64,000 nucleotides of DNA from Psammoneis japonica (Eukaryota): contig QPGO01000024.1 in the NCBI GenBank assembly GCA_008632985.1, positions 573,848-637,847 on the forward strand. The letters are read 5' to 3'. Within the stretch, counting starts at the first letter, position 1, and every line of letters begins with the position of its first letter. The notes under the pieces were generated by a model. It saw nothing but the letters and a program-made list of their open reading frames with translations. It had not been told where the DNA came from and made no database searches. Shown in pieces: positions 1 to 61,672 of the stretch. The position numbers were made by a program, and so were the translations under genes.

Positions 1-500
1 GGCTCCAACTGCCTCCAGTGCTGCTGGCACACAGGTGCCCACCGTCACCACTGCTGGCAGTTGTGCACAGGCTCCCACCACCACCACTGCCAGCAGCACA
101 CAGGCTCCCACTGCCACCACTGCTGGCAGCAAAACACCTCCAATCACCACCACTGCCAGCAGCATGCAGGGGCACCATCAACACCAGACAAAAAGAATCC
201 AACCACCTTGAATGCCAGCGGCACCCACCACCACCAGATGGAAAGGACAGTGGTGCACAGGCTCCAACCACCGCAAGTGCTGGCAGCTGTGCAGGGTGCA
301 GCCTCCCACTGCCACCAGTGCCAGCATCACACAGGGGCACCCACCACTGCCAGATAGAAAGGACAGCAGTGCACAGGCTCCAACCGCTGCCAGTGCTGGT
401 GGCCACACAGGATGCAGCCTCCCACTGCCACCAGTGCCAGCATCATGCGGGGGCACCAGCAAAAGGCTCCTGCCGCCGCCAGTGCTGCCACATTCAGCCC
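1..500. repeat. Degenerate tandem repeat, ~116-bp unit built on CCAC/TGCCAG-rich submotifs
   Basis: 243-337 and 359-453 are near-identical (aaggacagYRgtgcacaggctccaacc...gcagcctcccactgccaccagtgccagcatca); shorter related units lie at 1-240. Confidence 0.8.
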
Positions 501-844
501 TGCCACAATGTGCAGTCCAGCCCATAAATTTATGTTGAAAACAACACCGTCAGAGACGCCACCAATGTGACAGATCTCTTTCAAACTTTCCAACACATTG
601 TCACATCTAGAAGCATGCACTGTGGCATGGCCACGGGAACGCACTGAAGATGCCGCCACCGCATCATCATCGTGAAAGTGCCATTTGCGCTGGCCTCACG
701 CAAATTTGAATGAGGCCTGATTGGCGCAACTGCCATTTCAGTGTAGCCCCACGCAATGTCATGCACGTAGAATCCCACACAAGTTTTGTGAACGCATGGA
801 AGGACAGGCCAAGTGCAACCATTTTTTCAAATCTCCACAGTCCA

Positions 845-1658
845 TGCTTGCTGCTGCTGGCCAGAGCCAGCCAGCAGTGAGCAGCTGGCCAGAGTGGGTG
901 CATGAAGTGTGAGCAGCCAGCTGGAGTGGGTGCAGTGTGGGCCTCTGCTGGCACTCTCTGGAGTGGAAGTGACAGATCACTCTTCTTCATCTTTCAGGTG
1001 CTCCAGGTGATGAGGACAAACACTTGTCTGGGTTTGGTTGAAAAGTGTGTGATGACAAGTTCTGGCTCTCTTGCAGTGGGATCACCAGCTGTGCTTTTGT
1101 GTGTTTGTCATTGTGCTCACATGGTGGAGGCCACTTCACCATGCAAGGGACAAGTGCACAGCCAGCAGGGCCCTGCCTGCTTGCTTGCAATGCTTGCTGC
1201 TGCTGGCCAGAGCCAGCCAGCAGTGAGCAGCTGGCCAGAGTGGTGGGTGCATTGGCGTGAGCAGCCAGCTGGAGTGGGTGCAGTGTGGGCCTCTGCTGGC
1301 ACTCTCTAGAGTGGGAGTGACAGATCATTCTTCTTCATCTTTCAGGTGCTCCAGGTGATGAGGACAAACAATTCTCTGGGTTTAGTTAAAACGTGTGTGG
1401 TGACAAGTTTTGGCTCCAGCAGTGGGATCAACAGTTGGGCTTTTGTGTGTTTGTCATTGTGTTCATGGCGGAGGCCGCTTCACAGAGCAAGAGACAGACG
1501 TACAGCCAGCAGGGCCTAGCCTGCTTACTTACGATACTTGCTGCTGCTAGCCAGCCAGAGCTAGCTAGCTAGCTAGCCAGCAGTGAGCAGCAAGCTAGAG
1601 TGGGTGCACTGCGGGCCTCTACGGGCACTCTCTAGAGTGATAGATCGTTCTTCTTCAT
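845..1658. repeat. Tandem repeat, ~346-bp unit, ~2.3 copies, crossing the edge of a TpA/CpG-depleted block
   Basis: gcagtgagcag recurs at ~874, ~1220 and ~1580; tcttcttcatctttcaggtgctccaggtgatgaggacaaaca occurs at 981 and ~1329. Confidence 0.9.
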
Positions 1659-1742
1659 TCGGTCTACTAAGTCAACTACATGTTCCATAGACCTGGGAAA
1701 AAATAGACTGAGCAAATGAAAGAGTCTTAGAGTTGTCTCATT

Positions 1743-4700
1743 TTAGTCTACATGACGACGTTTCGCAGTGCCGCCACGCTGTAGTCGTCTTTCTTCTGCC
1801 TTCCGTTTACGCCTTTTCCGTTCACTTTGGTGCTTCTTCATTTTGCGAGCTGTGGCCACTTGTGGATCCTGAACGGCTTCCACTGCCAATTTCTGCTTGC
1901 GCGCTTCCTTCTTCTCTCGAGCTCGGACCTTCACAGATGCGTACGCCTCTAGGAATCCCTCCGTACCACAGTGCTCTTCCAGCACATGGAGTACGTTTTT
2001 GGCGATGTCGCCTTCCTTCGATGTCGGAGCATTTTTGCGAAACGTAATGGCGGTTTCAATTGCATTATCGGCCTCCACAATGCAACGATGCAGCGGTTCA
2101 AGCATTAGATCCAGGTACGGCGACACAATTTTTGGGTCCGCAAAAGTTGTAAACGCCGCGAATGACTTGAAAACAGCTACACGACGTTTCTCGCCCTTCG
2201 GCTTTGCCATGTTGGATAGACGCGTCATGAGCCATGCTAAAGGAGCTTTCTCTCCTCTTGGATCTTCACCATGTTGAGGCACTGCGAAGCACAAATGCGG
2301 GTATTTGTCCATGGCTTGAACGACCCATGTGAGAGACTTGATAGTAGTTGAAACATCCCGGTTTTGTTCGGATTCTGGGACGTTCAACTGGAGACAGAGA
2401 TTTTGTGCCACGTCGAAGAGTGATCCTGGACGGTTCAAAAACGTGCACTCATTCTTGTCTGCAAATGAAGTGGCGTGCAATGCTTGTAAGTGACCCGAAA
2501 GCAGGCGAGAGGCAACCTGCTGCACCCACGGATGAGGATTCACCAAACAATCGACAATCAAAGGCCATAAGTCTGTATGCTGGGATAGCATCGTAGGAAA
2601 ATGATTTAACACCTTGTCGAGGCATACCAGAGAAAAATAAGAGACCTCCCAATCATTCAAACCATCTGAGTTTTGGCTCTTGAGGTGTACATGGATTCGA
2701 GATATTAGTTCTCTCGCCACATTGCCTCGCTTCAAGAAATCCGGGCGCGCGTCAACAAAGACACCAAACATTTGCAGCGACGTTCTCTGCAAGGAACCTT
2801 TCCCTTGCGACGACCACTTGACAGCATAATCATAAAGCGTTTCTAGCACGTCCAAGGATACCCGACTAAGCAGCCGCATCAGAGATTTAGCAACAGCTTC
2901 CCGACACTCCTTTGAACCGTCGTTGACAAGCTGAAGAACAAGAGGCAAGAATAGAAGCTGCGCCTGCTCCTCGAGAAGAGGCAACGGGAACTTGTCGATT
3001 ACCGCAGAAACAAGACCGATGGCAGACAGCCTCCCTTCTTCGTGCTCGTACTGAATGTTGAGGACCATTTGTTTAAGATGCCCTTCTAAACGGATTTTTC
3101 TCATCGGGTATTCTAGCAGATAATACAAAAATATCTGTGAACTAAGCTGCTTAGTCGAAGCATCAGAGGGGTAAAATATGTTGAGTAACGAAAACATAAA
3201 AGAGTTTTCGACAGTTGATTGAGGGGGGGGAAACGTACCTGCCGAATTGTAACCTTTTGACTGCGGACGGACAACTCAAGCATTGTCTCCATCAAGTCAT
3301 AAAATTCCACAGAGATGAATTTACGGGATGATATCGCTTTGATCAAGCTGAAAGTAGCGTGGTGGTGGTCCATGTCAACCACAGAAGCTTTCAGAAGTGA
3401 CAACAGCACCTTCATTTGCTCCGTGTCAAGAGGCATACCGGTACTTGAAGAGTAAGGCTGAGTCAGGTCTCCCTCGTTAGTGAAGTCGATGCTACTTCCA
3501 ATCTCGCTCTGCTTGTCCATGGTCAGGAGAAGCGTCAGCGTCTTAAAACACCCTTGTGTCAGTTCATGGTGCAAATTTGAAAGGGCTCCTGACGATGTAA
3601 GAAGATCCAGTGTCTTTGTGCCGAGCGTTGTTGAACATGTAGGAACTGACGGTAGATCAAACCGGAGAAGTGACGCAAGACACTTCAATGCGAGTAAGAT
3701 CACATCCTTATCTCTGCAGATGCTGACACATATCGTCAAAATCGATATGAAGCCATCCATCATTGAAAGTAACTGATCATCATGTGAGTCCTTTTTGGTT
3801 CTCCTCAAAGCGGACGAAAGCAAGCTGAGACAAAATGTGACTGAACTTATTGCAGCAGGGTCATTCAAACTTCCCGCAGACAACTTCGCCACCCAAGAAA
3901 ATCGCGAGTTTCCCGTTAATCTGGGCGCGCTTGCACCATCCTGAACCTTACCCAATGCTTTCCTCTCTTTGAGTTTCATCGCATGCGCGTCATTTTCGGA
4001 AGATACCGAATGAACAGTAGATGGATGCCATACTACAACTGCATTCGTCCGGCGAGTTCTAGGTTTCGTCAATTGAGATGATCGAGCGTAAGGAACACCG
4101 CTTTCTCCTGTTCGACTGACGCTCATGGGCTTCAGTCCATTTTCATCATCACTGCTTTCGTAGGCTTCAGCAGAAGATCTTTCTCCCGGTTCAGTCGCTA
4201 CAGAATGATACTCCCTAACGAATGGTTCAATGGTCGCATAGACGAAAGGAAAAAGCTCTTTCTCAACTGCACTCGGGTTACGTGACAAGCCAACAACAAC
4301 GCGATTCAAGCATTCTGTGACTTTTCCGATCGTCTTGGCACTAACATTGCTCTCGCGTAAGCGATTCAACAATGGTGTCACAACAACATGAATAGACGAG
4401 AGGTTCGTGCTTTTCGCTCCTGGGCTGGTGCGAATGGAGGGCTTGAAGAGAAGCATTCTACACATGAGCTCTATCGAGTCAACGCTTTTCGACCCCGACG
4501 CTTCTTTCACGACACGTTTCTGAACACCCTCGGCTTCTTTCCTCTCCGCCGCCTCGCCAAACAAATCCTGTTGTATCACATCAATCAGAGCCGGCAAACA
4601 GCGGTCAAACGGGAGCGGTAACATTTCTTGGATAACCTCACCACTAGGAGGCTTGTATGTTTTGGAAATTTCGAGAAGAATCGAATGAATGGTGGCGGAT

Positions 4701-7700
4701 CGCACGTGTAGCTGATAACCCTCGGTAAGAGCTACGACAACTTCACGAATAATGTCCAAGAGATACTTCCTGTCAACCTCAACTGCCATCTTCGCGAGTG
4801 TCGATCGAGCTGCATCTCTTGCATCTGACTCTCGATTCTTGAGAGCGTCGCATGTCACAGCTAGTAATCTGGGAAGTCTTGATTCGAAATATTGCTCTGG
4901 GAACTTATACAACAACTTTAGGAGCGTTAGGACCACTGGGGATCGAAGGATCTTTACTTTCGACCCACTTCGATCAACTTTCTCCTTTGACAAGAAACTT
5001 TCGATTTTGGGGATAAGTCGCCTCTCTAGCGTTCTCCAAACTGTACTGCCATTCTTTGAAGACAGAGATCGAGTTTCTTCTGATCTTTCGCATTCGTTCT
5101 CCTGGCTGTTACTTTCAGATTCCACTATGTCGAAGTGAAAGCCATCTATAAGTGAACATATCATCCCAACTAGGAACCTCTCTTGCTCTGGGTGACGAGG
5201 AAACTGCATTAGAGCAGTCCACAACGTGTTGTTGTACTTGTTCCAAGAAAGACGTTTCGCGAGAGTCCCTACAGTTGCAATTGCTTCCAATACGTATGGT
5301 TCTTCGGCTTTGCTTTGGCACTCGTATATTGGATGCATCGCGAGAGGGAGTAACACATTCGACATCGAATGCATTGTAAACGATGAGCCAGATGCATCGT
5401 TTGAGTTCGAACAAAGCGTTTTACGTAATCGCTGAAGAGCCCTGCATCGGCGATGGATTTGTACGTGAGTGAGATTCTTGAAGAAGTCCAAATCTGGGTC
5501 GTCGGTGCGTACGAGGCAACCTAAATCACCATACAGATTCGGCGAGGGGTATCCCTCAAAGCAACGCGACACTTCGGCCAACAGAAGAATAAAAAGCCTG
5601 CGAACTTGTAGACTACTGGCACCCAGTCCCAGTCGTATGAACGGAACAATTGATTTCTCCATCAATTGCAACCAAGAATCCCGATGCAATTCCTCTTTAT
5701 CTGCTTTCGGCGTCACCTCTGAAGCCAAAAGGATGAGCGTTTTCAACGCCTTGAAAGCACCCCGACTCACTACGCCATCGTCGTCGTAAAGAAAATGAAA
5801 GCACGTTTGTATAAGTGGCAGCAAGTGAATGAGGTCTGGTGGGAGATTAGAATCGGAGCTCTGGCCTGCGAGATGTAGCCAATTAAAAGACGTAGCATTC
5901 GCGTCACTCAGGCCATTCAGTGCTGGGATGAGCTGGTCGTAATCTGCTTCATCGACTCTCTTTGCATTCAAGGAGCAGAGTTGACCCAGAACTATTGAGC
6001 CGTGCTTGAGATTCTCGTCAGCATTGCTGCCATCGGCTATTGTCGCAATAACCGTTGCCGTCCTTTGTCGAACACGTAGGGACGTGATACCTTTCCCCGA
6101 TTTATGCGGACCAAGCACTCGCGACAACGCCGCCAAATGAGAAAGCGCTTCTGAAGCTTCTACCCGTGGCAGAATACTGCTCAAAATATTCAACACGTTG
6201 AGCTGGCCATCTTCGTTAGCTCTCAGATCGTGCCCAAGGAACGGGATAAGGAGCCCACAAAGACTGGCAAAGACTCCAGCGCCCTCTGCACCTCTGCTTC
6301 CCTTTGCATCGTCGTGAACGATAATTTCACTGACGCGACAAAGGATAGCAAGCTGTCGCCAAGTAATCTGGTTCACCGGATGTTTCCGTTTCGTTTTTGC
6401 GGCCGATTCAGTCAAGCCGAGGTTTTCTATCTCAATCCGATCGGCGAACTGCTTGATCAGAACGGGAATGTGCTTTCGAACTAATTCGACCCCGCCAGAG
6501 TCATATGAAAGTTCATAGGCAGCTGTGGAATTATCGCTGTCAGTCATGCCATCACTCAAAAGGTTATCGATAAACTTGAGGGAGGCATCGACAACCTCGT
6601 GCCTGCTTGTGGGTGCGATGCACCTTAATACAGCTTCGACAGCTGCTGGCTGGTCAACAAGCGTCGGTATCAGACGATGATGCGCCGATAGTGTCACAAG
6701 GAGCCGCAAAAGAGCCGGGGCCTTTTCCGAGTTTACAACTGTACCGGGAAGCAATCTGACGGAAGTAGCGACAGCTCTCCACATCCTCTGGGAGTATTTA
6801 GAAAAATCGTGCGAGAAAGCATACTGTGCCATAACCTCCTCCATTCGTTGGAAACACAAAGTCCTTATGGTACCATCACGACAAACTTGAGCATTTCCAT
6901 TCCCTCCCGTTTCGTCTGGTCCAGCATGAATGCTGTGAAGTTTTCTTACTTTTGTGAGCTCACAAATCGATAGAATGATGGACATGAACGTCGGCACATA
7001 CTTCTCAACTCCGTAACCCAGCTGAGCAATCACATCTGACAATAGATTCAGGAACCCTTCCTGACGTTGTTGATGTAAGCCGATTGCCGGGAGGTCTTGC
7101 GCAGTCATAGATTCTATGGCTTCTAAAACTTTGTCCCTGTAATCATCCGACTGCTTCTCGATGGGCACTATTGGAAGAGCAACGGGGACGAAGATGCGAA
7201 TCATCAAAAAGATGAAAGGGTACAAGTCAGGTCCGTCTCCGAGTACAGAAAGAAACGATAGAACTGCAGCCCGTCTTGCAGAAGGGCTGTCCTTTGATGA
7301 TTTCGCCCCAGAAACGCGTGCAGCAAGTCTTCCAAAAAGCATACGGCTCATAAGAGCAAATAGCGTAGCGCGATGATCTTCCTCTATAACCCCAGAGTCC
7401 CTCGAGATATCAAAGTTAACCAGTGCTTCACGTAGCTCTCCTTTCTTCAGCATGTTGTTCAAATGATCGGCATATGGCATCAGCTGAGGGAGCTTAAATT
7501 TGAGCACGCACGAAAGTGCCAGCTGGGCAATCTCTACGTCTTGGTGAGACAAAAATGCCCAATAAATCGATTGAAGAACAGCATGTTTGTACAGCTGCTG
7601 CGGACCATTCACCACAGCAAACATTTGAAGAAAAGACGACAATTTTCGCTTCAGTTCTCGTCTTGTGAGATCCTCCCGTGTCCACCTGCACACAAAAAGT

Positions 7701-10700
7701 AGCAGTAACAACAAAAAGGAAAACCATCATATTGAGATTACGCATCTGGTCAGACACGACATGGACGTTTCCAAGCTTACTCGGCTACTTCTTCTACTTG
7801 ATCTTCGAGTCTGAGCTCCGCTGCTTCTGGGTCATTGCGATGAAATAAAAAGTATTGCAAGTGAAGAAATCGAAGGAAAATGGGAACTACAACTTTTGAT
7901 TTTTTCGTTGTCAAGTGTGGTGCTCCCTCCATTACGCTCCAAACAAGCTCAAATATTGTAGCCGTGTCTGTACTTTGGTGGCGAGACACCCTGCCAAATT
8001 CACCGGCAGTGATTACTTGACAGGAAAAGAGCCTTGCATCCGAGCCATTACTCTTCTCCCAAGCAACACATTTACGATGATACGCTGTATAAAATGATTC
8101 CTTCGAGAAAGCTCCATCGGACACTTTACGCGGACTACTCAAGTCCTCGTGACACGGAACCGTGACTTTCTCTAGCATGGCTTCGATAGACGGCCAAGTA
8201 GAATCCTCGTGAGACGTCGCCAAGGCTACAAGTGCCCGCACTGCGAAGGGCCACATCGACGAGAACTTTGTGTGTAAGATACCAAACATATGATTCGATG
8301 CAGCTTCGGCATACGCCACGGGCAGCCTCCCAGTCCTTCCCAACACCTCGACTCTTGATATAAGCGACGTAAGATGACGCTCATTGTCAAGGTTCACCGG
8401 AGATGATTCTAAGCTCAAAAGAGTAGCTAAAATGTCACAAGGACCAGACAAGGTCTGCGAAGTCTCCCATGTTTCGCCAATTTTGTTCCTAGTCATACCA
8501 ACTGGTTCTTCGTCGAGTTCGTCTGTCAGGTCAAGATCCGCGTAGTTAGTAACAAACGGTTTAGGTGGAAAGCTGCAAAGGATCTCGAGGGTATGAAGAC
8601 GAAGGAAGTGAGATTTATGTCTCAGATTCGGTATCAAAATGTCAATTACATCATTCGGTGAATCACTGAGCTCAAGCCCAAAATCTGCCAAAGCCGCGAC
8701 TAAGGACGAAACACTCTTTACTGCCCAAACGGAGGAAGGATGCGTCACGAGAAGGCCCAAGGCCGATGCCCGTGACCGAGAAACTGATTTCTTTAGGAAT
8801 AGTGGTGCGTCCTCTGGTCCTTTGCTGCACACCTTTTTCGATATGGTCGCCAACGTCTCAAGCACCAACGCCTTTGTAATCAATAAATCACAGTCAGTGA
8901 TCTCTTTATCCGCATCTTTCGAAGAATTCGAGCCACAAAAATTAGTATCCAAATGTACCATAGTAGCATCAAACCACTGGGTTATCCTCTTGAGGACTTT
9001 GTCGTCGACAACCTTAGATCTTTCTCCAATGAGAGCCAAGAACGGAATGCATCGACATGCACAACCAAGTCTCGCAAGGTCCTCCCGAGTAGAAATATTG
9101 CGAATAAGGCAAACGTCAAGGAGAGCAAATTGATGATTCGGCAGGGGTTTGCATTCAACAGCGTTGTCAACAAAGAAGATACTATCGTCGTCATCTTCTC
9201 CCTTTTCGGTTGACAATAAACGACACGTGGCGACAGAATGAATTAATGCCAAAGATAGATTCGGATTGTCTTGGTTGAACTGGGCAGCTGCTTTCAACAC
9301 TGCGGTTCCCACATACTGCAATGCCACATCACGTGGCACCGACGGCAAAAGCTCGGTTGCCAGGTATTCGGCAGCTTCTTGCACTTGTCGGTCTGATGAT
9401 GTCTTTCCGGTCCGCGATAGAAGCTTCGGCAAGAACCGACAGAGTCGCGAAGAGTTTTCGTGGTCTGGAGCCGCTCTCCAAACAGAACAGAGCAATCCCC
9501 AAGTCACTGTTTGGACGTCGGGTGTCAACATTTCGTATAGGTCGCAAGTCCTGTTCAAAAAGACACGTTCCAATAAAGCGAGAAATTGGTTTATCATCGC
9601 TTGATCGATACTGTGGATAGCAGCATTGTTAAATGATACCGACTGGTCCAGCAGTTTCAACATGTGGGAAAAAGCTTGCATTGCGTGGACATCAAGAATC
9701 TTAGGAGCTGACTGCTCTAGGGTTGATAGTACCCCGTCGGTCGCTTTGAATAGTTCCTTCCACACCCGCTCCATGCTGCCCACATAAGTACTGAGCTTTT
9801 CTAGAAATGCTCTTGCAATATTATAGACAATATCTTTGCTTTCTTGATCGTCTTTGTCATTTGACCCGACGCAGTCAAGCGCACACTTGATCGCGACGTG
9901 GCCTTTGGAATGCAACTGTCCCTGAACTCCCCGTGCCGTGCAGCACAGCAATAGGGATACACCATCAATAGCATCGCTGACAACCCTCTGCCGTGACTGC
10001 CGTGAAAGAACTTTTGCTAGTGCACGAATGACCCGTTTTAAGTGTCGCTTCCGTGCCGAGTCACTGGGCAGCTTGCGAATGAGCGGCGAGAAAGTTTCAG
10101 CAGCTAATCGACGGACGTAGTCTCGCTTATGTGCAAGTGTGGCCCCATAATACTGCCTCATGGGTTCCAGGCACGGTGCTTCATCTCTATTTGCAGTTTC
10201 TTCAAAGACGTTCGTGTCATAGCGAAAAATATACGACAATGTCCGAAACGCAGCCTCGACAACTGTAACATCCAAAGGGACTGGCTGCTTCCCTGATATC
10301 GGCGGCGGATTCAATAAATCATAAATAATCCTTGGTATGATCACTGGGTGAAGATATTTATGAATCTCATGCCGTAGCTCTTTGGCCAGAACGGAGAGCA
10401 AGTGCAATATATCGGTTGTGGCGAGGTTAACGACGTAGCTCTGCCTGTTTCGATTACTGGTTCCGTTCTTGTCGTCCTCTCTCGGAACCCACGGTCCAGG
10501 CGAGGGTTCGGATCTCTCAGAAGCAGGCGAAAGCAAGTAAGCCATGCAGAGTTCGATAATGGCTGGCGCATGATGAAGGACTTCGGGGAGGGATCGCACC
10601 AAAGGCCAAACAGTCCGGTAGAACCTGCCGAAAAGCTCAGACGCGTTCCGTTCGTGTGCCAAATCAACTTCTTCCGCAAAGGTAGATGCTTCTTCTAGCG

Positions 10701-11010
10701 TGTCATCTCCAACAAAATTCTTTGAATCGAACTCGGCTTCTGCTGCTGCAGTGGAAACGATAGCTACCCGAGACGAATCGTCACCAGCAACCCTTGACGT
10801 CCTCTTTGACCTCTTGCGAAGCGACTCTTCCGAATGGTGATGAACACGCTCTTCTCTAGTTGCAGCGCTGGTCACACCAATACGCCGTTTGTACGATCTA
10901 TAAATGTCAGCGGACGCCCTCTCGGAACGCTGCCGCGCCGAAGCAAAACGAATCCGGTTCTTGCCACGCGCATCAGTGTTGAGCGATTTAATGTGTTGAG
11001 TGTTCTCCAT
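1743..11010 (-). CDS. UTP20: U3 snoRNP/SSU processome HEAT-repeat protein UTP20; exons 11010-7781, 7685-3239, 3146-1743
   Basis: Three long ORFs are joined in frame by GT-AG introns 7686-7780 and 3147-3238. Motifs include SLPEVLHH, YVRRLAAE, LTHVQIHRR..AL, LTEGYQLHV and QIFLYYLLEYP, plus a basic C-terminal tail. Confidence 0.92.
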
Positions 11011-11653
11011 CTCTGAAACGCACCCCTTGAAAGTACCAACCGCTCTCGATGAGACGTTTTGGCTGGATGGAAAATTGACGACGACTCCTGCTGCCAATCC
11101 GAGTGCCTTCCAGCACTGTCATGATCGCTGATGGTCGCTTGGGTGCGGGTTTGTGTTGAGTGGTGGTTGGCTGAGGTTTTGAGCTCACAATGTCACCTCG
11201 GGCCAATCAGCACGTTGCAATTCATGACGCGCCGTTCAAAGAGCGACCTAAAATCAGTGCAGTATCAGAGAAATGATGCTTTTCAGTCTTGTTTTAAATA
11301 GTCGACACGTATGCAGAAAAAGACATAAGACTCAAGTACGTAGAGATACAGTAGGACAAACACGTGTAACTGACAGCGCATAAGCTTGAAGTGCGTATCA
11401 AATCCTAAAGACAACCCGGATGTTTATTTGACTCGTAGAAATTTACGATGTTTCCCAGTACAAAACTGTCGTCAGCGCGATCCATCAAGTTGGAAGAGGT
11501 GGCTGAAGTTGCTGTTGTGGCCACTGCATGCATTTCAATCACACAAACTTCTGTTCCGTCTCTGTGCCAACCATACCCATCACAGCGACTTTAAAGCGCA
11601 CTGCCGTAATCAGTATTTCTTTGTGGCGCTCGATCAACAAGCCTTCTGCTAAA

Positions 11654-12734: not shown

Positions 12735-13510
12735 ACTAGAGCTAGCTAGAGGAAGTACAGCGCAGAGTACAGACGCAGGAACTTTTTCGGATTAGACGGG
12801 ATGATCAGTCACCGGTATAATTCCAAAACTTAAACAAGTTATGTAAGAAATATTACGGAATCCTTCTACCGTACCTACTGTAAAGTGCCCGTTTCCACAC
12901 AACCAAGGCGAATAAAGAGTGTATCAGGAGAGAGTGCCGAAACAAAATGTGTTGTAGTGAAGAAGAAGGGGCTTAGTGTGAAGTTGTTATTCAGAATGCG
13001 TTGACGTGATGTGATGTGATCGCTTCCAACATGCGATGTCTGACGGAAGGATCCATAGTCAGAGAATATATATACAGGAGTTGGTAATTTGGAAATTACG
13101 AGTGGCGAATACCAAGAAATCTAGCTAGAGTTACTTTCATACTAGCTAGCTGGTATTAGACTGTTCTGATCTGTAGGCTCCTGCCTCTATTACTCTCTCT
13201 ACTCGTAGATAGAGTACAGCAGTGCTGCTCTACTACTCTCCAGAGTAGAGAATACAAGCAGCTAACCAACCTGTCGGTTGTGAGTCAGTCGTGGCGGGGT
13301 GGCGTTACCGTTTGTCGTCCGCACGCGCAAAGGAGCCGCAAAAAGAAGAAAGAAGAGGCACATAAAAGGACCTCCTGCTGGCTGCTGGACGCGTCAGCTT
13401 GGTGAGGTTTCTGGTTGTCTGCTTCGAACGTTCGCTCCCAGCTCTCGCGCTATCTACTGTACTTCTATTTTCACATCCTGAATGTCTTGGTTGAAGGCGT
13501 GAAAAGGCAC

Positions 13511-19119: not shown

Positions 19120-22100
19120 AGCATTGGCCAAGGCGCGACAAAATGACTCGAAAACTCATCCAGGTGTCGCTCCTGCTCGAATTCTGTCTTGCATTCAAGA
19201 CGGCACGCAAAAGAGAGCCCAGGCTGTGACCAATTCTGAGCTTCTGGCGATGCTTTGCACAATCCTGCCCTCAAGGGCAGGTGATGCAAAGCTTCCCACA
19301 GAACTTGGAGTTGCACCATGATGGCCATTGAAAACTGACCTTTTTTGCAATGAAACAGACTTTTCAAACCTGGCCCATGTTTGAAATGTCTCATGCATGC
19401 TGACAAAAGCAAAATGATCATTTGGAAGCTTCAGAAGTGCTTTGGGCAGCAAAGCCAGGGAGTCCTCAGCTCTTTGTGGGACCTGGGGGGCATTTGCTGA
19501 CACCTCCAATTTAGGATCATCTGACAGGTGCTTGCCTTTGCATTTCATGATGATCTTGCCCCAATCAGCTCTGGACATGAAGCTGCCAATGGATGTGTGT
19601 TCACAATTCCAAGCACATGATTGGACACAAGGAGATGACAGCAAAGGGGCTTGTCTTGCACCACCTGGCTGTGGTCAGGCAACAAGTGAGGTGTGTGCTG
19701 GCACCACCTGTGTTGTGATGGCTCATCTCTCTGGATCAGTCAAGATGTTGACACTTCATGGCTCAGACTTTGGAATTTGCAGATGCTGGGTTGCAGCATC
19801 TGTGTCTGAAAGAAAACAACAACAACAAAAGCTGCTTGTGCTGGCTGATGGCTGCCCATCCAGTGCATCTGCAGCAGAAATGTGCCAGCACACTTGTGGT
19901 GTGCTGGGAGCAGCAATGGAGAACACACCTTCAGCAGCTCCATGTAAAAAATTCACATTTGTGTGCCCTTGATCAGCTTCTTGTGAGAACATCCAAAGAT
20001 CAAAACACCAACAAACGTGTTTTTCTGCAGTGGCCCAAGGGTGCAAAATTCCACATGGTTGAATGTGAGCGGTGCTCCAAAATCAAGACTGCTGTTTTTC
20101 CCATTTTCAACCTGTTGCAGAATTTTGATTGGGCCAAAGGTTTGTCATTCCTTCAACCCATTCTTTTTCAGCTTTTGGCTCCTTTTGCAATCTCTGTGAT
20201 CAAGAAAATGAAAGTCTTGCAGCAAAACCTCTCCAGGTGCAGATGCCATGAGTTGCCCACCCAGCTGCAAAGCTGGTGCTTTGCTGCATCTTTGCTTTGA
20301 TGTGTTTCAGGAGATGCCAGCCACACTGTTGAACATGTGCCAATGATGGATCCTGGCTGCTCACCATCATTGGTGGCATTTTCTCCCACCCTCTTGACTT
20401 GCTGCAATCAGCTCATGATGGCACTTCCTTTTCACCTCAAAATGTCTGAAAAACTTCTTGTTGTTTCTCACAAAATGCATGCTGTGTTTGCAGGCTGCAA
20501 CAATGAATGACTTGCACAGGAGAGCTCACTTTGCCACTGTCCAAAATGGTGGTTGCTGTGCTTTCTGCCAAAAATGCTGTTTCCTGGAACAAAGGGAGAA
20601 AGACAAAAGAAAGAAATGACCAACCCAACAACCTCACATGATTTGTGTGGACCATTGAGTGTTGCCTGGCTGGAAACAACCACAGCCAGAGCTTGCAAAT
20701 CTGGGCACTTGCAGCTCCCTCCATCTGAGCAGCAGCCATTTTGTCACAAACCAGCAGCAACCAATGCCACAAACCTGTCAACCAGATTGGCCTGCAGCGG
20801 CTTTTCTGCAGCTTTGAAATTTTGAAATGTCATGGCGGCTGGTCTCTCTGGCAACTCTCCTGTGAAAAATGCAGGCAGGTGCCTCCTGAGCAAAAAAAGC
20901 ATGGGTGCCTCCAGAAAAAGGAACTGCCTGGCTTGGCTCAGTTGATGCCACTGGCTGCCAACTGAGCCAGCTCTAAAAAATGACTGTTGCAAAGCAAAGC
21001 AAAGCTGGACCATGTCTTTGCCACACATGCTGGTCACCTGCCCAGCAATTCTTGAGATTTTTTCTGTTTCTGCACCCAGCTGCAGTGGCAAAGTAAGGTG
21101 CCCTTGTTCAAATGCCAAAGCATGGTCAAGATCAGAGGAAAGGAAGAAAATCTCTTTGCAAGTCATCAAAATTTCAACATCTTTGCAATTTTCACAGCTG
21201 CCTTTTTGTGCCACACAGATGGCAGTGTGGTTTGTCAATGGTTTTTGATGATGATGGGGTTTTGATGTCAATGGGGCCAGCAGCATTGTCAAATCAAATG
21301 TTGCAATGAAAAGGCAAGGGTGGGTTTCTGTGCATTGTTTTTTGAAGCAGCTGAAAAAATTGTGGTGCCAGCATGTCATCTTTTCAAACAAACAAAAAAC
21401 AATGACAAAAACAAATCCCCAAAAAATCCAAACATGGTGCTCACAACAACAAACAGTTGGGGTGGTCTGGACTGTCAAAAATGGTTTCACACTCATTGTT
21501 GGGGCTTCAAAACAAGGAGAGACCAAACAAGCTTGTTGTGCCAACAGCATGCAGTGCAAACAGCTGCATTGGATCAAACAGAAAGCACTCCATCAAAAGA
21601 GCTGCACTGAGGTTGCGAAAGGAGTGAGTCAACGCAATTGTGGCATGCTTGCAAGAAGTCAAGGTCAGTGCAGTTTGACAAGAAGTGGTGTGAGTTTGGT
21701 CAAGATGTGTGGTCATGACCAGCAGCTTGTGCTTGTCACCAGCACAGCAGGCTGCCCTCATGCAAAGTTTGCCGGAGCTGCCATTTGTTGCCAAGCAGGC
21801 AAGTGCACAAGCTCTGAGCCAGCAACAGGCAGCTTGAGACTGCCCTTCTTTCCAAATGTCAAGAAAACTCTGGAAGTGTTTTTCCTGTTCTCAAAAACAC
21901 CTGGAAATGCCCTTGCCTGCAGCAACAAAGCACCAAGTTTTTGCAGCCCCATTTGTAGAATGCACATGCACACACACCTGGGGCACAGATGTGTTGCAGA
22001 GTTGAACAGGAGCTGCAACAGGCCACCAAGCTGATGGAGTTTGTCCAACAGCTGCAATCAGAAACATGCCAGCCTCTCATTTTGGCTGTTGACCTCAGTG

Positions 22101-25100
22101 GCTGTCTCTCCTTTGCTGGCTTTGTGCCACAAAGGAGTTGGAAAAAGCACCTGCAGATGCTTGCACAAGCAGCGCCGGCACTTTTCTTCCACTCTTTTTG
22201 TTGTCAAGGGGGGGAGGGGGAAGCTGGTGGGATGCACACTGCACAACTGGTCAAACCTTGCTTGCGTCCAAGCTGCTGGGCAGTGCAATCATGAGCAGTT
22301 GCTGGCCATTCAGAGCTTGTTTGACAAGCACAAAGTGGCATCAGCAGCATTGGCAAACTTGTTTCTGCAGCATTGTCAACAGAGATTTGTTGGATGAGCA
22401 AGCTTCCATGAAACTGGAAATCTTGTGTGACAAGCCTTTTTGACAGAAGCTTTTGCTGCTGGGGCCCATCGTTTTCAACACACTGCTGGGAGACAAAGTC
22501 TGGACAGCTGTCTTGTGTGCATGCCAGCTCATTTGCAGGTGCTGGCTCAAAGCCCTGACACCCAGCTTGGATGTGGGAAACACAGGTGGCACATCTGCCA
22601 CAGTTCTGGCTGAGCCATCTCTGCTCTGGTGCTGACATTTGGGCAGCTCCCAATGACCAAGTGTGTGCAACAGTCTCCTCATGCCCTGGAAGCACACTCA
22701 ACTGTGCTCAGCAGCATGAAACATGAAAAGAGCATCAAAACACCAACAAATGCTGTCTTTTTTGAAAAGTCAGAGTGTTGCAGGAACAGATGGGTGCTGC
22801 CTGTTGATCCATGTGTGCTGGCTGAGCACACTGTTGGTTGTCAAAGGAACTGCTTGCCTTCTGTTTTTCCTTTGGCTGTTCTTCCAGAAAATGCAGCAAA
22901 AAGAAGAGATGGCATCAGTCTGTGGCTTTGGAGTTGCAGGTTGGATTTCAAGAGAAGGCATCTGCTGCACCAGCAGAGCCACCTCCACTCTGCAGCTCAT
23001 GCTCAGATTGTCCCCAACAACAAGCAATGGAGCACACATGGCAGCCTTGCCCCTTTGGTCCTTGCAGTGCTCTCAACTGCAGCCTGCATTTTGTTGTGTG
23101 TGCCCAAACAACTGCACACCCAAAAATGACAAACAAACTGGCAGGCTGGTGGCACACAAACTGTTGATCTTTGGCAGATGGACAGATCAACCTCTAGAGG
23201 TCCCCCCACATGGCCACACATTTGCAAGGGTCCAAAAGCCCAAGTTGAAGTGTGCACCAAAAGTGCCAGGCCCCTGCAGTGCACAGGCAGTTGCTTTGTT
23301 TTCAAGCTGCCACAAAGTGCCACAAAAACATTTTTCTCAGCTTTTGAAGCACCTCATCAGATGCCATTCACAGGGTCATGTGCAGCCCCTGCACAGCACA
23401 ATCTTTGGATGGAATGAAAGGGGAAAAAGCATGGCCAGCTCTGAAACAAAACACAAAGATTGTGGCCAGCCATGGCAACAAAGCAGGGCAGGGGAGATGG
23501 CTGCACCAGCTCCGAACATCAAGCACTGCTGCTGCAGGTTTTGCAGCCCATGCTGATGGCATCACATTTGCCAATGCCATTGAGCAACTCCCTGGAGAGG
23601 TCAAAGGCCAGCTTGTTTGGAAAGGAGTTTGCAAGCTGCAGCTTGTTATGGTCATTCTGGCTGACATGCAAAAAGTGGTGGCAGGACATCTCAGCTTCAC
23701 CGTTGTCAAAATTTAAAAAAAAAACCTTGAGTGCCAAGAACAAGCAAGGTGGTGTGCTGTTTGTTCAATCCATTGTTGCCAACATGATGCCATCTCAACA
23801 AAGATGGCAAGAGGTGGCTGGGATTTCCTTCAAGAATTCTTTCAGCTGTCCTGCTCTGGTCTGCCATGCTGTTAACTTGGGAGGGGGAGAAACTCAAAGA
23901 AATGCAAAACATGTTGGGAGCAAATTGAATTTGATGAAGCAAAAGGGGGTGGCAAGAGAGGCAGTGCTCACACTTTGCACCAAGCAAAAGTGTTTGGCTT
24001 GCAACTCACAGGAGCTCTAAAAACATTCACTGCTGGAGCAGCCACCTCTTTGAATGATTTTATCACACCCAGCTAAATGTTTTTGCTTGGTTGAGCACAA
24101 GAGCATGGCTCTCCCAGCAAATTACAATCAAAATGAATGAGGTGCCTTCCCTTTCATCAAATTTAATTTGCTGCTGACACACCTTGTGTTTCTCCAAGTT
24201 TCTGTCCAGAAGCCAACCACAGTGTTTGGACAGAAGCCAATGCATGAAATCCACAAAAAGCCCATGCCTTGAGACATTGTTTGTGTTGTTGGTGTGTGTT
24301 GGTGTGACCTTTTTGGTGGTGACAGTCAAATGAAACCTTGCTTGTTGGCAGAGAAGGCACATTTCATCTGAAATTTGACAATGCAAATTGAGGCCTCCTG
24401 CTGCCTGTTTTTCAAGCCATTTGTCAGGGCCACAATGAGCCTCATCTTGCTGAATTGCAGAATCCAAAAATGCCAAATGAGTTGGCCCTTGGCCTTTGAT
24501 TTGACCCATGTGTCAGTGTGACAAGGATTGAATGTGATGCCATCACTTCAGAATGTGAAATCCACAGTTGTGTTTGTTGTTTGGAGCTGGTGTTGCTGTT
24601 GTCTCCCATGTTTCATGGTGGTGATTCATTTGAAAACAAGTGCTGCACAGGTTGCCTTCATGTGGCAGAAGAAAAGGGGCTGTCAAAGCTTTGTGTGTGC
24701 ACTTGGCTCTTGCCCCAGAATTCTCCTTCTTCTGCTGTGCAATGATGTTTTTTGTTGAGGTTCTCAAATAAATTGGTGCAATGAAATGCTGAGAGAGGCA
24801 GTGGCACTCAACCACGTGACATCGGGGTGGGCACAGCATGCCGAGTCGACAGTGAGGCCAAAGATGGCAGAAATGCATTCTGTCCGTACATCCAAAATTA
24901 AGATTTTGTTGACTACTTCACTTTGATTGTGTTGCATGCCTTGGGTTAGAAAAGTTGCTGTGCATGAGAACGTGTCGGTCGTCAGTGCGCAGATTCGACT
25001 GCAAACGTTGGAGTGACAATGTGCTGCAACTCCACCGCGTCGTGTGGTGGACAACCAAGCACTGTTGGTGCGACTTGAGAGAATGCGAACGATTGACGAG

Positions 25101-30715: not shown

Positions 30716-33599
30716 GTCTTCAAACAACAAAGGGCTGCCGTAACAGAGTGAAGATGCGGTCGATGATCGATGCAGAATTCACAATGCCGATGCCTCATGC
30801 TGAATGCTCGCTCGCATCCGCCGATGCTCCAGCCAGATTAGACCGCGCGCTCCCTGCGCCAAAAAATGACTCCACTTCTGCGCCTACGTCATCAGCTGAC
30901 GTCAAGCTCTTTTGCGTGTGCGGGCGGCGGGCGTGCGTGCGTGTACACCACCATCGTTTCTACGTACAGCATTCTCTTCTTTTCTGACCCCAGGAAACAA
31001 AAAGTGCTCTCAAGAGAGTTGTTTGTCTTCTTGGTGGTCCACTGTTCAGTGCTTTGGCCAGGTCACAAAGGCAGATGTGCACTGCAACTGCAGGCACTGT
31101 GATGAGGCAGAAGCTGGCAGTCGGGTGCTGTGCCAAGCCACCAAGCACCAGCCCACGAGTGGCTCGGTTTGCGCTGCTCAGCCCAGGGCTGCAGCACCAT
31201 TCTTCATGTGGCTGGTGCACCCCTCGCAATGAGCAGCACTTGGTGTGTTCTCACTGCCATCAAAATCCACTCTGCTGTGTGGGTTTTCCAGAACAAGGAA
31301 CCCAAGTCCTTTTGCCTGGAGAGGCCTTCTTTTTGAGAATGTGCTCACCCAGCTTTGCTGCTGCATGGCACACAACAGGGTGCACTGTCCCCTCTGTGCA
31401 GCTTGTTCCATCAACTGGCTTGTGCACAGTGCTTCCTCCAAGTCCATGCCAAGTGCTGCAAATGGCGCCATGCCTTTTGCAGGTCAGCAGCTGGAGTGCA
31501 TGATGCCAGTGGAGCCTTGGCAAGCAGGCATTGCACACATCAGCTGCAAAGTCATTGTTGCCACACCATCCATGCACCCTTTCTGCATTGTTGTCCATGT
31601 CAGCCTCAGCTTTGACAATGCTGACAGTTGCACCACCATGTTTGCCCTGCTTTGCTTGTTGCAATCTGCTTTGCTTGGTGCCATGTCTGCGCTTTTGGCG
31701 ATGCATGCAGTGCAGTGCATTTTGAGGTGCCAGCACTCTCACTCTGCACTTGGCTTTAAAGGCTCTTTGTTCTCCATGGCACTTTTGCTGCAACCACCTC
31801 CCTGAGTCAAGATGGAGCAACTTTTGCCAAGGGATTGCTCTTCAGAGCATGTGTCACTCAGGAGGTGGAGCAGCATTTGTGCCATGCCGCAATTTTGTGA
31901 GCACAATGCAGCACCTCAACTGGCCTGCACAGAGCTTCACACATGCTCACAAAGGCAATTGGCAACAGCGCCAGTTCTCAATTGTTGCTTTTTCAGCAAT
32001 GGCCAATGACTCCTGGGGAGGGGGGGGGGGCAGGATGTCACCTCTGTTCTTGTTCAGCTTTGTTCTGCATCTTTGAGCCTCAGGAGAGTGTGGTTTGCTC
32101 ATGATTTAGCAATGATGCCCAGCTTGTGGGCAGAGTGCATTTTTCTGGTGCTCTGGCACTCTCTGTGAGCCACTCCAGCTTGTTTCTGGCTGAGTCCAGG
32201 CCTGTGGCATTGCTCTTGTTGCACAAGTCATCTCCAAACAGATTGGCAGAGCCCTTGCTGGAGCCATCTGCACTGACTCTGTGGGCACACTTGTGAGGTC
32301 TGCAGCATGTCTTCCAGAGCCGCACCTGGAGCAGCGCAGCTCACTGTTGTGTCATTTGCCTTGGTGCAGTGCTCCTTCCCAAGAGGTGTGCTAAAAAGAA
32401 AAAGCTTGTCAGCTCCTCAACTGCACTTGCTTCAGACCTTTTGACTTGGACAAGCTCTTGAGAAAGAATGAAAGGCATGAGGTGCTGCTGTCCTTCTTGT
32501 CTTTTTGGGGTCGTGCACTTTGTGCACTCTTGATGGCTCTCATGGGGCTGTGCTTCTCTCTCCTTTTTGAGTGTCTGCACAATGGCAAGTGGCCTTTTCT
32601 TTTCCATGTTGGTGCAAGGCTTGCCCACCCTTGTGTGCTCAACAGTGCACACAGCTCAGCCCACAGGGCACAGCTAGATCCAAAACAATTGCAGTGATTG
32701 TCTTTTCCCGAGGTGATCATCAGAGTCATTGATTTTTGTTTCTGATGTTCCTTTTTCAAGAAGAGCATTGAGAGGAAGCAAGAACACCAATTTTTTAAGA
32801 GGAGTCAACAACACTGGCTGATCTTTCTCTCTTGCTCTTTTTTGTTTGCCCATCATGACAACATCTTCTTTGTGGCCCACAGAGCTGACAGACATCCGAG
32901 ATGGGGAGTGCACTCCCTTGTGTCGGACAGACTGGCATAGACAGCATGAGAGATCGATGATCTCTCCTTTGCTCACTTTCTTTCTCATTGGCACACGATT
33001 GTCATCTGTCCAGACATCGTTAGATGTCCGATGCCTAGTCTGTAGAGCATCACATGGCAGGTGTCAAAAGCTGCAAGTGTGTTCAGTTGCAAGTGCAGCA
33101 TCCTGGGGAACCAGTGCATGAAGGGTGCAGAATCAAAAAAGAATTCCTTCTTGCACGCTCACATTGTGCTTGGTGCTGCTCTAAACAAGAAGGGAGAGAG
33201 AGAGAGAGCACAGCAAAAAAGTGTGAAACAAAAAGAGAGACAGAAAGTGGGCAGTGGGTGATGAGTGCCAACCTCTTTTTTTGTGCAAGAGAACACCACC
33301 AATGTGGCTGTTGCAAAAAGCCTGTTGGCACCATGCAGCTCCAGCTCCTCCACAAAAAAAGAAAGATGGGGCCAAATTTTCTCAGCAGAGGGCAGAGGCA
33401 GCAATGCCAAAGCCAGAACAAGTGCAAAAGCAAGAACTTTTCATCAGACAGGAGGGAAATCAAAGCAATTGGGTGTTGCATCACCAAGTTGCTCAGTTCA
33501 AAAGACTGCCACTGGCAGATGATTGTCTTTGACTGTTGCCATCACTGTGGATCCTTTTCAATGACATGAGTTGTCATCTCTCCAACGTGGGGTCATTGG

Positions 33600-36200
33600 T
33601 GTCTTTTCAGCACTGCTTGTGCTGCAATTGAAATTGGTCTGGCCAATGCTGTCAAAAAGTCTGGTGATCTTCTGCCAGGCCTCAATTTTTGTGTCAGCCA
33701 AGGTTTTGAGCCATGGTTGATTTCTGCTGACATCCTGAATGATGGACTCTCATTTTCCAGACACTTTTTCTGCACCAAACCAATGACTGAGACTTCTGGA
33801 GTTGAGCTTGGCTCCCAAGCTGCACACAAGTGCAAGCTGGCTTGGCAAACACTCTGTGCACAAGAGCAGCTCTTTGAAACCACACAGTGACACAGCCACA
33901 ACTTCAAGAAGCTGCTCTCTTGTCACTCACTTGCTGCCAGGCTGCAGCAGATGCCAAGCTGCCTTTTCATCAGGCACGGCACTCTCTTGGCACCCAAGTG
34001 CACCATGCTCCTTGTGGCAACTCAGCACTGGCTGCATGCATTGGGCAGCACCTTGAGCATCCAGTTTGTCACTCCACCCATGAACCTCAGCTGGCTGCTT
34101 CTGTGCACAGTTTGTTTTTGCAGATTCTTTCAGTGAGCACAAACCCAGGATGTTTTGGCCACTCTCTTGGCCAACCAAAAGCACTGCAAATGGCCAGCTT
34201 GCTGTGATGCCATGCACATGCTTCCATCAATTTTTTGGGCTGCACAGCAGCACAGTGCTTCTTCTGCAAATTGTTGTTTGCACATGGATTTTAATGCCAT
34301 GATGGAGCACCACACTGCCCTTCTTGAGCTCAACAAGGAACACACCCCAGAGATCCTCACCCAAGCTGACTTGAGCAGTTGCAGAGTTGTGACTCCCTTG
34401 CACCAATTTGCTGGCTCTGCTTTCTTGACAAAGCTGATGGATGGTTCCAGCCAGGTGTTGATGACATTTGCAAGTCTGCTGGCTTGAGTGCAGCATCATC
34501 CTGGGCCATGATGCAAGGAGAGCAAGCACTGTGGGGACTTTTGCTCACCGGCCCAAATGGTGCATGAGAAAGTTTGAGCAATCAGGACAACTCCATGAGC
34601 TCAGCACATTTGGCAAAGTCATCAAGCACTGCATGATGCCACAGCATTGCAGCCACACTGGCAGTGCAATCTCAAACAAGATGGCACCCATTGATCTTTG
34701 AAGTGCTGCAATGGCTCACCACACACCACACCTGTTCTGTGACACTTGTGTTTGACACACTCATTGTGTGGTGTCTGGCAACTCAATCTAGAGGATGTTT
34801 TGTGCCCTGGTGGCTGTGCTGGGCTGCTGCATTTTTGTGATGGGGGGGGTCCCCCAAATCTTCTCACGCCATTTTTCTGGTGGTTGATGATCCCATGCCA
34901 CATGGTGCAAAACCTCAATTTGGCATCAATCTGGGTTGTGCAGTTGTCTTGAAGGTGCAACATGCTCTCCAAGGGTGCCCCAAAGCTGGTGTTTTTTGGA
35001 AACAGGGTGTCAACAGCATCTTGCTGGATGCAACGACTCTTTTGTTCTATGATGATGCTCACAACAAGTGTGTGCTCATTCTGCTGCCTTTGATGGCAAG
35101 AAAATTCTCCTTCTGTGGAAGGTGGGTGATTTTTTCATCACATGTTTTGACAAATGTTGATTGCAATGGTGACATGTGATTGGGAGGAAAAAGCTCTCCA
35201 GCACCCTTCTGATGATTCTCCATCACCACTGAAGTGTCTTTGTCTGGAGATTTTCAACAATGGCCTCAATGTTCATCAGTGCAATGGCTTGATCAGTGCT
35301 GCATGCTGCAGCCACATTGACTGCATTTTTGTGTTGCATGGGTGGGAGAATCCAGCTGCAGGTGAGCCAACAATGGACTTCAAGGCAACTCCCACATTGG
35401 TCAAGTTCATTTCTGAATTGTGCACTGATGTTGCTTGGCCCCGCTGAAGATTGTGCATCACAATTGGAAAGTGATGAGTTGGCCCAGGCCCAGGCCCAGG
35501 CCCAGGCCCAAGGCTTTGTGGCTGTTGTGCCCTGCTTGGTGAGCTGTTGTGTGCTTGCATCATTTGTCATCTTGGTGCTGGACATGTTGCCACAACACTG
35601 TCCAATGTTTCCACTGCTCCAGCTCTTTCACATTGCAATGCTTTGCCCAGGCAGGTCCACCTCCTTGCCCCTTTGAATGCCCTGCAAAAAACTCAAATTC
35701 ACCAACTTCACCACAGCTGCACACACCCATCAGCTTCTGGCAATGACCTGCAGAGTTGTGTTGCTGCCCAGGACAGCATGGGCACACATCAGAAGGAGCA
35801 GTGACTTCATGCCAGTGCAAGATGCACAGTTCTTGGTCATGGTGACAAGTTCTGAGGAGATGGAATCTTGCGCACATCTGGTGTTGCAGCCAAGCACATC
35901 TTGTGTCTTTGTCATGTCCCTCACAAGTTGGGATTTTCTCTAGAGGGACATGCTCCCACACTCACCAACACCAAGTTGGTGGTCAAAACCATCAACCAGT
36001 CTGTGTCCCAGCTGGGCACTCCTTGTGCCACATTGATGCTCAACTCTTTGCAATTTAAGAGCAGAAAGAGGCTGGTGAGGTTGTCACTCAACATGTCTCT
36101 GTGGCATCATCAACTCAGCAATGACCTTTCCAATGCTTTGGGTTGGATGCTGCATGCCAGACATGTTTGGAGTGCTGTTGACAGCCCATTTTGTGGGTGC
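33600..36200 (+). mobile_element. Ty1/Copia (CoDi-like) pol remnant with RT and RNase H
   Basis: LKQDGT..CCNGS (~34671), VLKVQHALQGCPKAG..W (~34945), NGLNVHQ..HGW, GELLCACIICHL..GHVATTLS (~35538), DLSNALGWMLHARH (~36123); many stops and frameshifts; 5' limit approximate. Confidence 0.85.
35481..35510. repeat. (GGCCCA)5 microsatellite inside the Copia RT remnant
   Basis: Read directly from the sequence. Confidence 0.9.
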
Positions 36201-47200: not shown

Positions 47201-47341
47201 AGCCGACATCACAACAAGGCAAACAAGCAGAAAAGGTCGGGGTTCGACTTGCAGGGTGGGATGTAAAGACAACTGCAACACAGGAAGTCCTGTCTCTCGC
47301 ACGTCATAATGGATGACTGACTGACGGACGCTGTCGTTACA
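41300..47341 (-). mobile_element. Ty3/gypsy LTR retrotransposon remnant (gag knuckle, protease, RT, RNase H, probable integrase)
   Basis: Domain order on the minus strand: CWGC..H..CP (~45700), MVDTCTG protease (~45190), SPWGALVILAAKP..CLCVSCHRLN, AFFAPKG..VMPMGFVNA, KLKKCKW..VEFAG (43300-44100), EFTWLADC..QHWWMELL (~42750); candidate LTR start TGTAAC at 47341; 3' limit approximate. Confidence 0.88.
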
Positions 47342-49497: not shown

Positions 49498-49543
49498 NNN
49501 NNNNNNNNNNNNNNNNNNNNNNNNNNNNNNNNNNNNNNNNNNN
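49498..49543. other. Assembly gap (46 N)
   Basis: Run of N. Confidence 1.
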
Positions 49544-61320: not shown

Positions 61321-61672
61321 TCTTATCCCAATCACTGAAGCACCAGTAGAAAAGCACGCACGTACCGTACGTACCTACAGACAGCACCGTGCGTAGCCTC
61401 AGATACTGTAGTCTAGAAGCTACTAGGGCCCTATCAGTCTGTCCGCTACTTCGATGTTGAAGTTCAACATGCCGATCTCGCTCATCTCAGTTAGTCCACG
61501 GCATGAGTGCGTGCTGAGCGTTGTTTGTTGTTGCTCATTGATAGTTAGTCCATCTCTCATCGTTTGTCAGCCAACGCTTTTAAAATCGAAATCTACCAGC
61601 CGATCTACCCAGCGCCGAAGCAAATCCTACAAACGCGTAGCTATTGATTACGATTATCTCAAGAAGTGCGTA

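Follow-up and report, generated by a model that had tools for sequence, protein, structure and literature searches.

The question raised by this locus is how a tandem repeat came to lie across the edge of a block that is nearly free of TA and CG, with TG or CA in its inner copies at sites where the outer copy has TA or CG. The answer that we consider likely is that such blocks, called domains below, arose by in-place, domain-limited hypermutation of chromosomal DNA, linked to enzyme-driven defence or silencing. The window analysed here is the whole 64-kb stretch, which contains 63,954 determined bases.

Genes and TA/CG-free domains of the window

The long open reading frames of normal composition in the window encode UTP20, a CPA2 cation/proton antiporter, a NUDIX-HAD protein and the products of further eukaryotic genes. 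The best relatives of the antiporter (57–73% identity) come from diatoms wherever their source is named (Nitzschia, Odontella, Fragilaria, Pseudo-nitzschia, Epithemia), and on the basis of these similarities the window is treated as nuclear diatom DNA. The sequencing run X1 originates from the same sample as the assembly and is not fully independent of it. The run X2 skips three introns of 92–107 bases with GT..AG joints and behaves like cDNA, though it is not recorded as RNA; its cover, which is missing over the domains, was left out of the evidence. The genes and introns referred to are as follows:

1743..11097, minus strand: UTP20, normal composition, with the stop codon about 280 bp beyond the edge of domain 1
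3147-3238, minus strand: intron of UTP20, skipped by run X2, GT..AG ends
11916-12015: intron, skipped by run X2, GT..AG ends
15107-16531: CPA2 cation/proton antiporter, long open frame of normal composition
17667-17773: intron, skipped by run X2, GT..AG ends

A run of 46 N is found at 49498-49543, with normal intergenic sequence around it; it is an assembly gap or a masked stretch.

Five domains are nearly free of TA and CG (limits approximate):

1..1460: domain 1, runs off the window start, multi-copy family
19185..24805: domain 2, left edge bridged by one 12.9-kb X1 contig at single-copy depth
27710..29095: domain 3
30980..47235: domain 4, 16 kb
59425..61345: domain 5

Together, these domains occupy 26,700 of the 63,954 bases (42% of the window), and their depletion is far beyond chance. 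The observed/expected ratio of TA is 0.62 outside the domains and 0.05 inside, and that of CG is 0.98 and 0.12, respectively. The ratios of CA (1.12 outside, 1.90 inside) and TG (1.15 and 1.82) move in the opposite direction, and the base composition is equal inside and outside. TA+CG accounts for 0.0988 of all dinucleotides outside the domains and for 0.0099 inside, and TG+CA for 0.1418 and 0.2321, so that the total of pyrimidine–purine steps is constant (0.2406 outside vs 0.2420 in the domains). An unchanged sum, with a gain of TG/CA that equals the loss of TA/CG, is what transitions from TA/CG to TG/CA predict, with little else. The decrease in TC/GA steps within the domains is arithmetically equal to the loss of TCG alone, which restricts the C-to-T change to CpG.

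One alternative is that the domains are old CG-methylated heterochromatin that decayed passively, by spontaneous deamination of 5-methylcytosine and a separate slow instability of TpA, with no machinery involved. We regard this as unlikely. Methylation decay in vertebrates leaves CG far above the 0.12 of expectation seen here, and no passive route is known to us by which A-to-G change would remove TpA, which is down to 0.05. Saturation is equal in the five domains, and none in this window is intermediate. On the other side, the loss of CG is less complete than that of TA and has a shoulder of about 200 bp at the domain edges, as spreading methylation might give, and a relic in domain 4 (see below) has had time to lose 110 of its 279 conserved residues. 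In addition, CG methylation in Phaeodactylum tricornutum is directed mainly at transposable elements (PMC9998398).

For in-place hypermutation linked to defence, the content of the domains is relevant. No repeats common to different domains were found, either in the plain sequence or after recoding as purine/pyrimidine, a form that is immune to the process; only local tandem arrays were present. Old inter-domain repeats could have diverged past detection. Judged by 31-mer depth, domain 2 is single-copy over its first 860 bp. Open reading frames of the domains were compared with Pfam. None of the 38 longest had a match above the cut-off, and one match (a reverse transcriptase) was obtained among 150 of the 163 frames of 75–139 aa, defined from stop to stop (table 11). 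Overall, 1 of 188 frames matched and 187 were left without a family, and no viral hallmark genes were recognised among these 188 frames. The domains are mostly anonymous. Since they are anonymous and share no repeats, and since domain 2 begins with single-copy DNA, defence against repeats or foreign DNA is put forward as a proposal only.

Direction of change in a polymerase relic and in tandem repeats

The reverse transcriptase match (43512-43841, minus strand) belongs to a longer relic. An HMMER search with this frame yielded 366 relatives, and their tblastn matches delimit the following feature:

42526..44134, minus strand: Ty3/gypsy-type polymerase relic (reverse transcriptase, RNase H), frameshifted, in domain 4

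The type was assigned from the best full-length relatives, which combine reverse transcriptase, RNase H and an integrase zinc finger. A site was considered conserved if at least half of at least eight relatives agreed, which gave 279 sites; the relic retains 169 of these residues and differs at 110. None of the 12 conserved tyrosines (TAY codons) is retained, with Cys at five of these sites and His at four. Arginine is retained at 4 of 21 sites and is otherwise replaced by Cys (4), His (3), Trp (3), Gln (2) or a stop (2), while retention is much higher for Lys (11/13), Pro (18/21) and Leu (19/24). Changes from TA/CG to TG/CA within a codon explain 31 of the 110 amino acid differences. The index (TA+CG)/(TA+CG+TG+CA) was also calculated for 80 related reverse transcriptase loci from metagenomes, among which no 1-kb window had an index below 0.1 (the lowest value was 0.21). 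The depletion is therefore not a property of the element family.

A second outgroup is provided by paralogues of domain 1. The summed 31-mer depth of this domain is 408–1043, compared with about 61 for single-copy DNA, which makes it a multi-copy family. At all nine differences listed between domain 1 and other genomic copies, the other copy has TA/CG and the window TG/CA. Loose ends of run X2, inspected by eye, likewise include copies that show CG and TA at sites read as CA and TG in the window, and at one identical site an X1 copy reads CA and the window TG. The family thus includes unconverted members, which may be expressed. Judged by aligned sequences, namely the relatives of the relic and the paralogues, the direction of change is fixed as TA/CG to TG/CA. 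This is the opposite of the alternative named in the first-pass annotation, in which TG/CA would be the ancestral state and the outer copy of the repeat would have gained TA and CG. Positions 1-530 of the window, which belong to this multi-copy family, consist of a repetitive array with units of 33–36 bp and 116 bp and contain an open frame at 3-527.

The repeat that crosses the edge of domain 1 was delimited by Tandem Repeats Finder at 847-1569 (period 348, 2.1 copies, 87% matches), with a partial third copy extending to ~1658:

847..1192: copy A, innermost, 0 TA and 0 CG
1193..1536: copy B, middle, 8 TA and 6 CG, mostly toward its outer end; change point at ~1460 within the copy
1537..1658: copy C, outer and incomplete, deletions present, TA/CG at normal level, index 0.41

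The first-pass annotation had quoted strings of the outer and inner copies at 1524-1554 and 1180-1210, and these are present. The same is true of the pairs that it had singled out, namely gatagatcgtt (1638-1648) and gacagatcatt (1318-1328), tttagttaaaa (1381-1391) and tttggttgaaa (1033-1043), and ctctctagag (1303-1312) and ctctctggag (955-964), the last in the innermost copy.

Copies A and B differ by 35 mismatches in 341 aligned columns. At 12 sites, A has TG/CA and B has TA/CG, and the reverse does not occur (sign test p = 2.4e-4); the remaining mismatches are 13 other transitions and 10 transversions. In the homologous part of B and C (C to 1658), B has TG/CA and C has TA/CG at 10 sites, with no reverse case; the alignment is uncertain at 4 of these 10 sites, which lie in an (AGCT)n-like stretch. 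Past 1658, B and C are non-homologous, and two sites of the same class and one reverse case found there were excluded. From the inside outward, the index rises from 0.00 in A through 0.06, 0.12 and 0.30 in the successive thirds of B to 0.41 in C, and the flank (1659-2000) has a value of 0.44. Many of the differences are thus indeed TA/CG to TG/CA changes that become more frequent with depth into the block. The further claim, that the effect depends on position and not on sequence family, agrees with a span of 0.00–0.41 within one family and with the loss of TA/CG over 100–300 bp at nine pooled edges (see below).

Part of this gradient has another origin. At 10 of 10 sites with TA/CG in C, the product in A and B is identical, while elsewhere the choice of product is approximately random; most of those changes had therefore probably already occurred in an ancestor from which A and B both descend. 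An effect of depth is independently supported by the 12:0 ratio of A versus B, and the rest of the copy pattern is partly inherited. The three TA retained inside copy B (1308, 1384 and 1388) are all of the form pyrimidine-TA-purine, which is the resistant flank class described below, so sequence context adds to position. An (AGCT)n microsatellite at 1559-1581 is exclusive to the outer unconverted copy. The inner copies have GCCAG/GCAG-type sequence there, as expected if the TA steps of the microsatellite were converted.

Domain 1 also contains a shorter tandem repeat:

216..447: 116-bp tandem repeat, copies at 216-331 and 332-447

Its copies differ at 18 bases, of which 12 form six discordant pairs with TG in one copy and CA in the other. 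Such pairs demonstrate that one ancestral TA or CG was converted independently in each copy after the duplication. With one further TG|TA and one CA|CG mismatch, the signature accounts for 14 of the 18 mismatched bases and other changes for 4, a ratio that also speaks against passive decay. A rough conversion rate per target site of ~90–130 times the background was obtained (~90% of targets converted, 4 other changes per 116 bp); this roughly 100-fold figure is an indirect estimate from a single 116-bp repeat and presumes that conversion post-dated the duplication.

Domain edges, strand symmetry and flanking bases

When nine edges were pooled, the values outside were 41–62 TA and 42–58 CG per 900 bp; moving inward in steps of 100 bp, the counts were 5, 3 and 1 for TA and 17, 19 and 5 for CG. 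The TA edge is sharp (within ~100 bp), while the CG edge has its shoulder of ~200 bp and fades over 200–300 bp. The edges are thus 100–300 bp wide and lie 110–590 bp from nearby coding sequence; for example, a start codon at 61454 is ~110 bp from the edge of domain 5.

Logan contigs of run X1 cross the gene-to-domain edges at a depth of ~61, and since they bridge them at single-copy depth, the edges are not assembly joins. X1 record 8 differs from the window by four letters over 14834-20000, and record 1 by none over 993-1191. It could still be supposed that TA and CG are truly there and that modified bases of silenced chromatin were misread in sequencing or polishing. The pattern does track probably methylated domains, and the reads come from one sample only. 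We nevertheless give this supposition hardly any weight. The independently assembled X1 contigs match the window through domains and edges at normal depth; symmetric misreading would produce conflicting strand reads and not one clean consensus; and the changes are accompanied by in-frame stops, frameshifts in the relic, ordinary transversions and discordant repeat products.

A side observation concerns the single-copy differences listed between X1 and the window over 1353-20000, which probably represent the other haplotype (n = 20, including 13 transitions). Eight of the 13 listed transitions are TA versus TG/CA, with ~3 expected (p ~0.003), and none is at CpG; the listed difference at 1536 (ATAC/ATGC) is located on the edge of domain 1. 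The differences listed give only a hint that TpA is unstable outside the domains too.

Both products are equally frequent in the domains (TG 3087 vs CA 3111). Their order is random, with a runs test z of -0.06 in the 16-kb domain and from -2.2 to +0.15 across the domains. Equal numbers in random order indicate that the strand was picked site by site.

The retention of target sites depends strongly on their flanks. For TA, 23% of pyrimidine-TA-purine sites and 3.3% of those with mixed flanks are retained, and none of the purine-TA-pyrimidine sites remains (0 vs ~311 expected; p = 5e-24). Grouped by the 3' neighbour, TA is retained in 12.8% of cases before A, 9.6% before G, 1.0% before T and 2.1% before C, and it survives best in CTAA and TTAA. 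For CG, retention is 13.6%, 6.2% and 0.7% when zero, one or both strands read TCG (both in TCGA; p = 3e-7); the best-preserved CpG sites lie between G/C flanks (GCGC, ~31%) and the least preserved in TCGA. Normalisation within each domain gives the identical ranking of flanks. The choice of product is biased to CA in purine/purine flanks (p = 4e-5) and weakly to TG in pyrimidine/pyrimidine flanks (p = 0.09); the polarised Tyr codons in pyrimidine/pyrimidine flanks (n = 6) gave three TG and three CA. A strict rule, according to which the mutated A needs a 3' pyrimidine on its own strand, was only partly borne out and describes a tendency only. These flank preferences, read from retained and lost sites, suggest an enzyme, and dependence of this strength is likewise at odds with passive decay.

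An enzyme could also have acted earlier, on RNA or cDNA. In such a case, the domains would be inserted mobile or viral elements edited before integration in an ADAR- or APOBEC-like manner, and the edges would be insertion boundaries. The neighbour preference of ADAR is 5' U and 3' G, and the 5' T of TpA fits this preference; one domain does contain the Ty3/gypsy polymerase relic, and the TA edges are sharp (~100 bp). We consider this origin quite improbable on several counts. The strands are equal, with no strand-coordinated tracts, and C-to-T change is found only at CpG. TA followed by a 3' purine is the most resistant, contrary to the 3' G preferred by ADAR. The depletion of CG fades across 200–300 bp, and one repeat family is graded across an edge, with 12:0 further change after a chromosomal tandem duplication. 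Hypermutation in place, on the chromosome, is therefore retained as the preferred explanation.

Proposed mechanism and known systems

The data establish the direction of change, its two target dinucleotides, the balance of losses and gains, the division into domains, mutation subsequent to duplication and the dependence on flanks. The process that we infer from them is enzyme-driven editing linked to defence or silencing and acting by chromatin-guided deamination. Its target would be chromosomal DNA in silenced intergenic domains, including the remains of retrotransposons. Both TpA, by A-to-G change, and CpG, by C-to-T change, on one strand or the other, have become TpG or CpA, in both cases nearly to exhaustion. 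Both strands are affected equally and site by site, with purine-TA-pyrimidine and T-CG-A as favoured flanks, and the process halts within 100–300 bp of the boundary, 110–590 bp short of coding sequence. In the 348-bp repeat, which straddles such a boundary, the deepest copy is converted fully, the middle one partly and the outer one not at all. The simplest chemistry would be a chromatin-guided deamination that affects adenine at TpA and cytosine or methylcytosine at CpG. Most likely, the process is RIP-like in logic with a different chemistry. A more specific proposal, which we make tentatively and hold to be less probable than in-place hypermutation as such, is that diatoms carry chromatin-guided base editing, unlike fungal RIP, in which one machinery takes TpA and CpG, the two self-complementary pyrimidine–purine steps, in silenced domains to TpG/CpA. 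Candidates for such machinery would be a pair of jointly recruited deaminases or, alternatively, an enzyme acting on 5-methylpyrimidines, as thymine and 5-methylcytosine both are.

The closest precedent is TpA hypermutation in Bigelowiella natans; new here are the joint loss of CpG, the saturation and the diatom host. According to a preprint dated April 2026, the mutation rate of two integrated viral regions of B. natans exceeds that of the remaining genome ~1000-fold in mutation-accumulation lines, with changes at TpA only and to TpG/CpA; its genome contains 124 TpA-poor clusters, and genome defence is proposed (bioRxiv 10.64898/2026.01.13.699255). Both systems share a regional change of TpA to TpG/CpA on both strands, with clusters that are poor in TpA, rich in TpG/CpA and enriched in reverse-transcriptase-type and unannotated sequence. 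The window differs in that CpG is lost too (0.12 of expectation; Arg 4/21 in the relic), while a search of the preprint lists no instance of 'CpG', and in that TA is at 0.05 of expectation, compared with 0.45 reported there for the giant-virus region of B. natans. The domains here occupy intergenic space (42% of the window) with no viral genes recognised. The hosts are a diatom (stramenopile) and a chlorarachniophyte (rhizarian), respectively. The rate was measured directly in B. natans and estimated indirectly, from one repeat, in the window.

The resemblance to fungal RIP includes transition-only, context-specific and near-saturating change in selected regions, with destroyed coding capacity, a dinucleotide signature and sharp bounds (PMC2621366, PMC7882544). 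However, RIP changes C to T at CpA and so makes TpA, whereas in the window TpA is destroyed and CpA doubled. RIP also requires duplicated sequence; here, domain 1 is multi-copy, but there are no inter-domain repeats and domain 2 starts with sequence that is single-copy in terms of 31-mers. RIP is described as specific to fungi.

The change of CpG to TpG/CpA in element-bearing, presumably silenced DNA is shared with methylation-driven decay. Such decay spares TpA and does not saturate, whereas in the window TpA is lost more completely than CpG. To our knowledge, methylation-driven decay of CpG has no strong T-CG-A flank preference. In diatoms, transposable elements are CG-methylated by DNMT5a (PMC9998398). 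Methylation of elements in Phaeodactylum makes the CpG part of the pattern plausible and leaves the TpA part unexplained.

In the window, change is site by site, on both strands and in chromosomal DNA, with a 3' preference opposite to that of ADAR. The likeness to ADAR and AID/APOBEC editing lies in the hypermutation of selfish elements by A-to-G or C-to-T changes of the deamination type; these enzymes work on RNA or on single-stranded intermediates, and the resulting clusters are strand-coordinated (bioRxiv 10.64898/2026.01.13.699255; PMC4866542). A limited literature search found no description of domains jointly free of TpA and CpG in diatoms.

Compared with the TpA-only case of B. natans, the window represents a stronger, two-target form, in which 90–95% of two dinucleotides are erased between genes and genes 110–590 bp away are untouched. 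Mutational genome defence in eukaryotes has so far been almost wholly fungal RIP, and diatoms combine major ecological weight with genetic tools. If chromatin-guided editing is true, these domains and those of Bigelowiella would together point to a widespread, overlooked mutational genome defence in SAR algae. The share of TA+CG among pyrimidine–purine steps offers a signature for genome scans, edge-crossing repeats and discordant TG/CA pairs are natural records of the process, and the flank preferences provide a fingerprint which every candidate enzyme has to reproduce. For annotation, the consequence is that homology searches overlook elements located in these domains, since all of their Tyr codons and most of their Arg codons are lost and TGA stops are added.

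Three matches of the HMMER search (P0123, P0167 and P0170) are reverse transcriptase fragments that lack Tyr altogether, and the position of the invariant Tyr in the G-Y-W-Q motif is taken by His or Cys. By their residues, they look as though other loci, or other organisms, had undergone this hypermutation as well.
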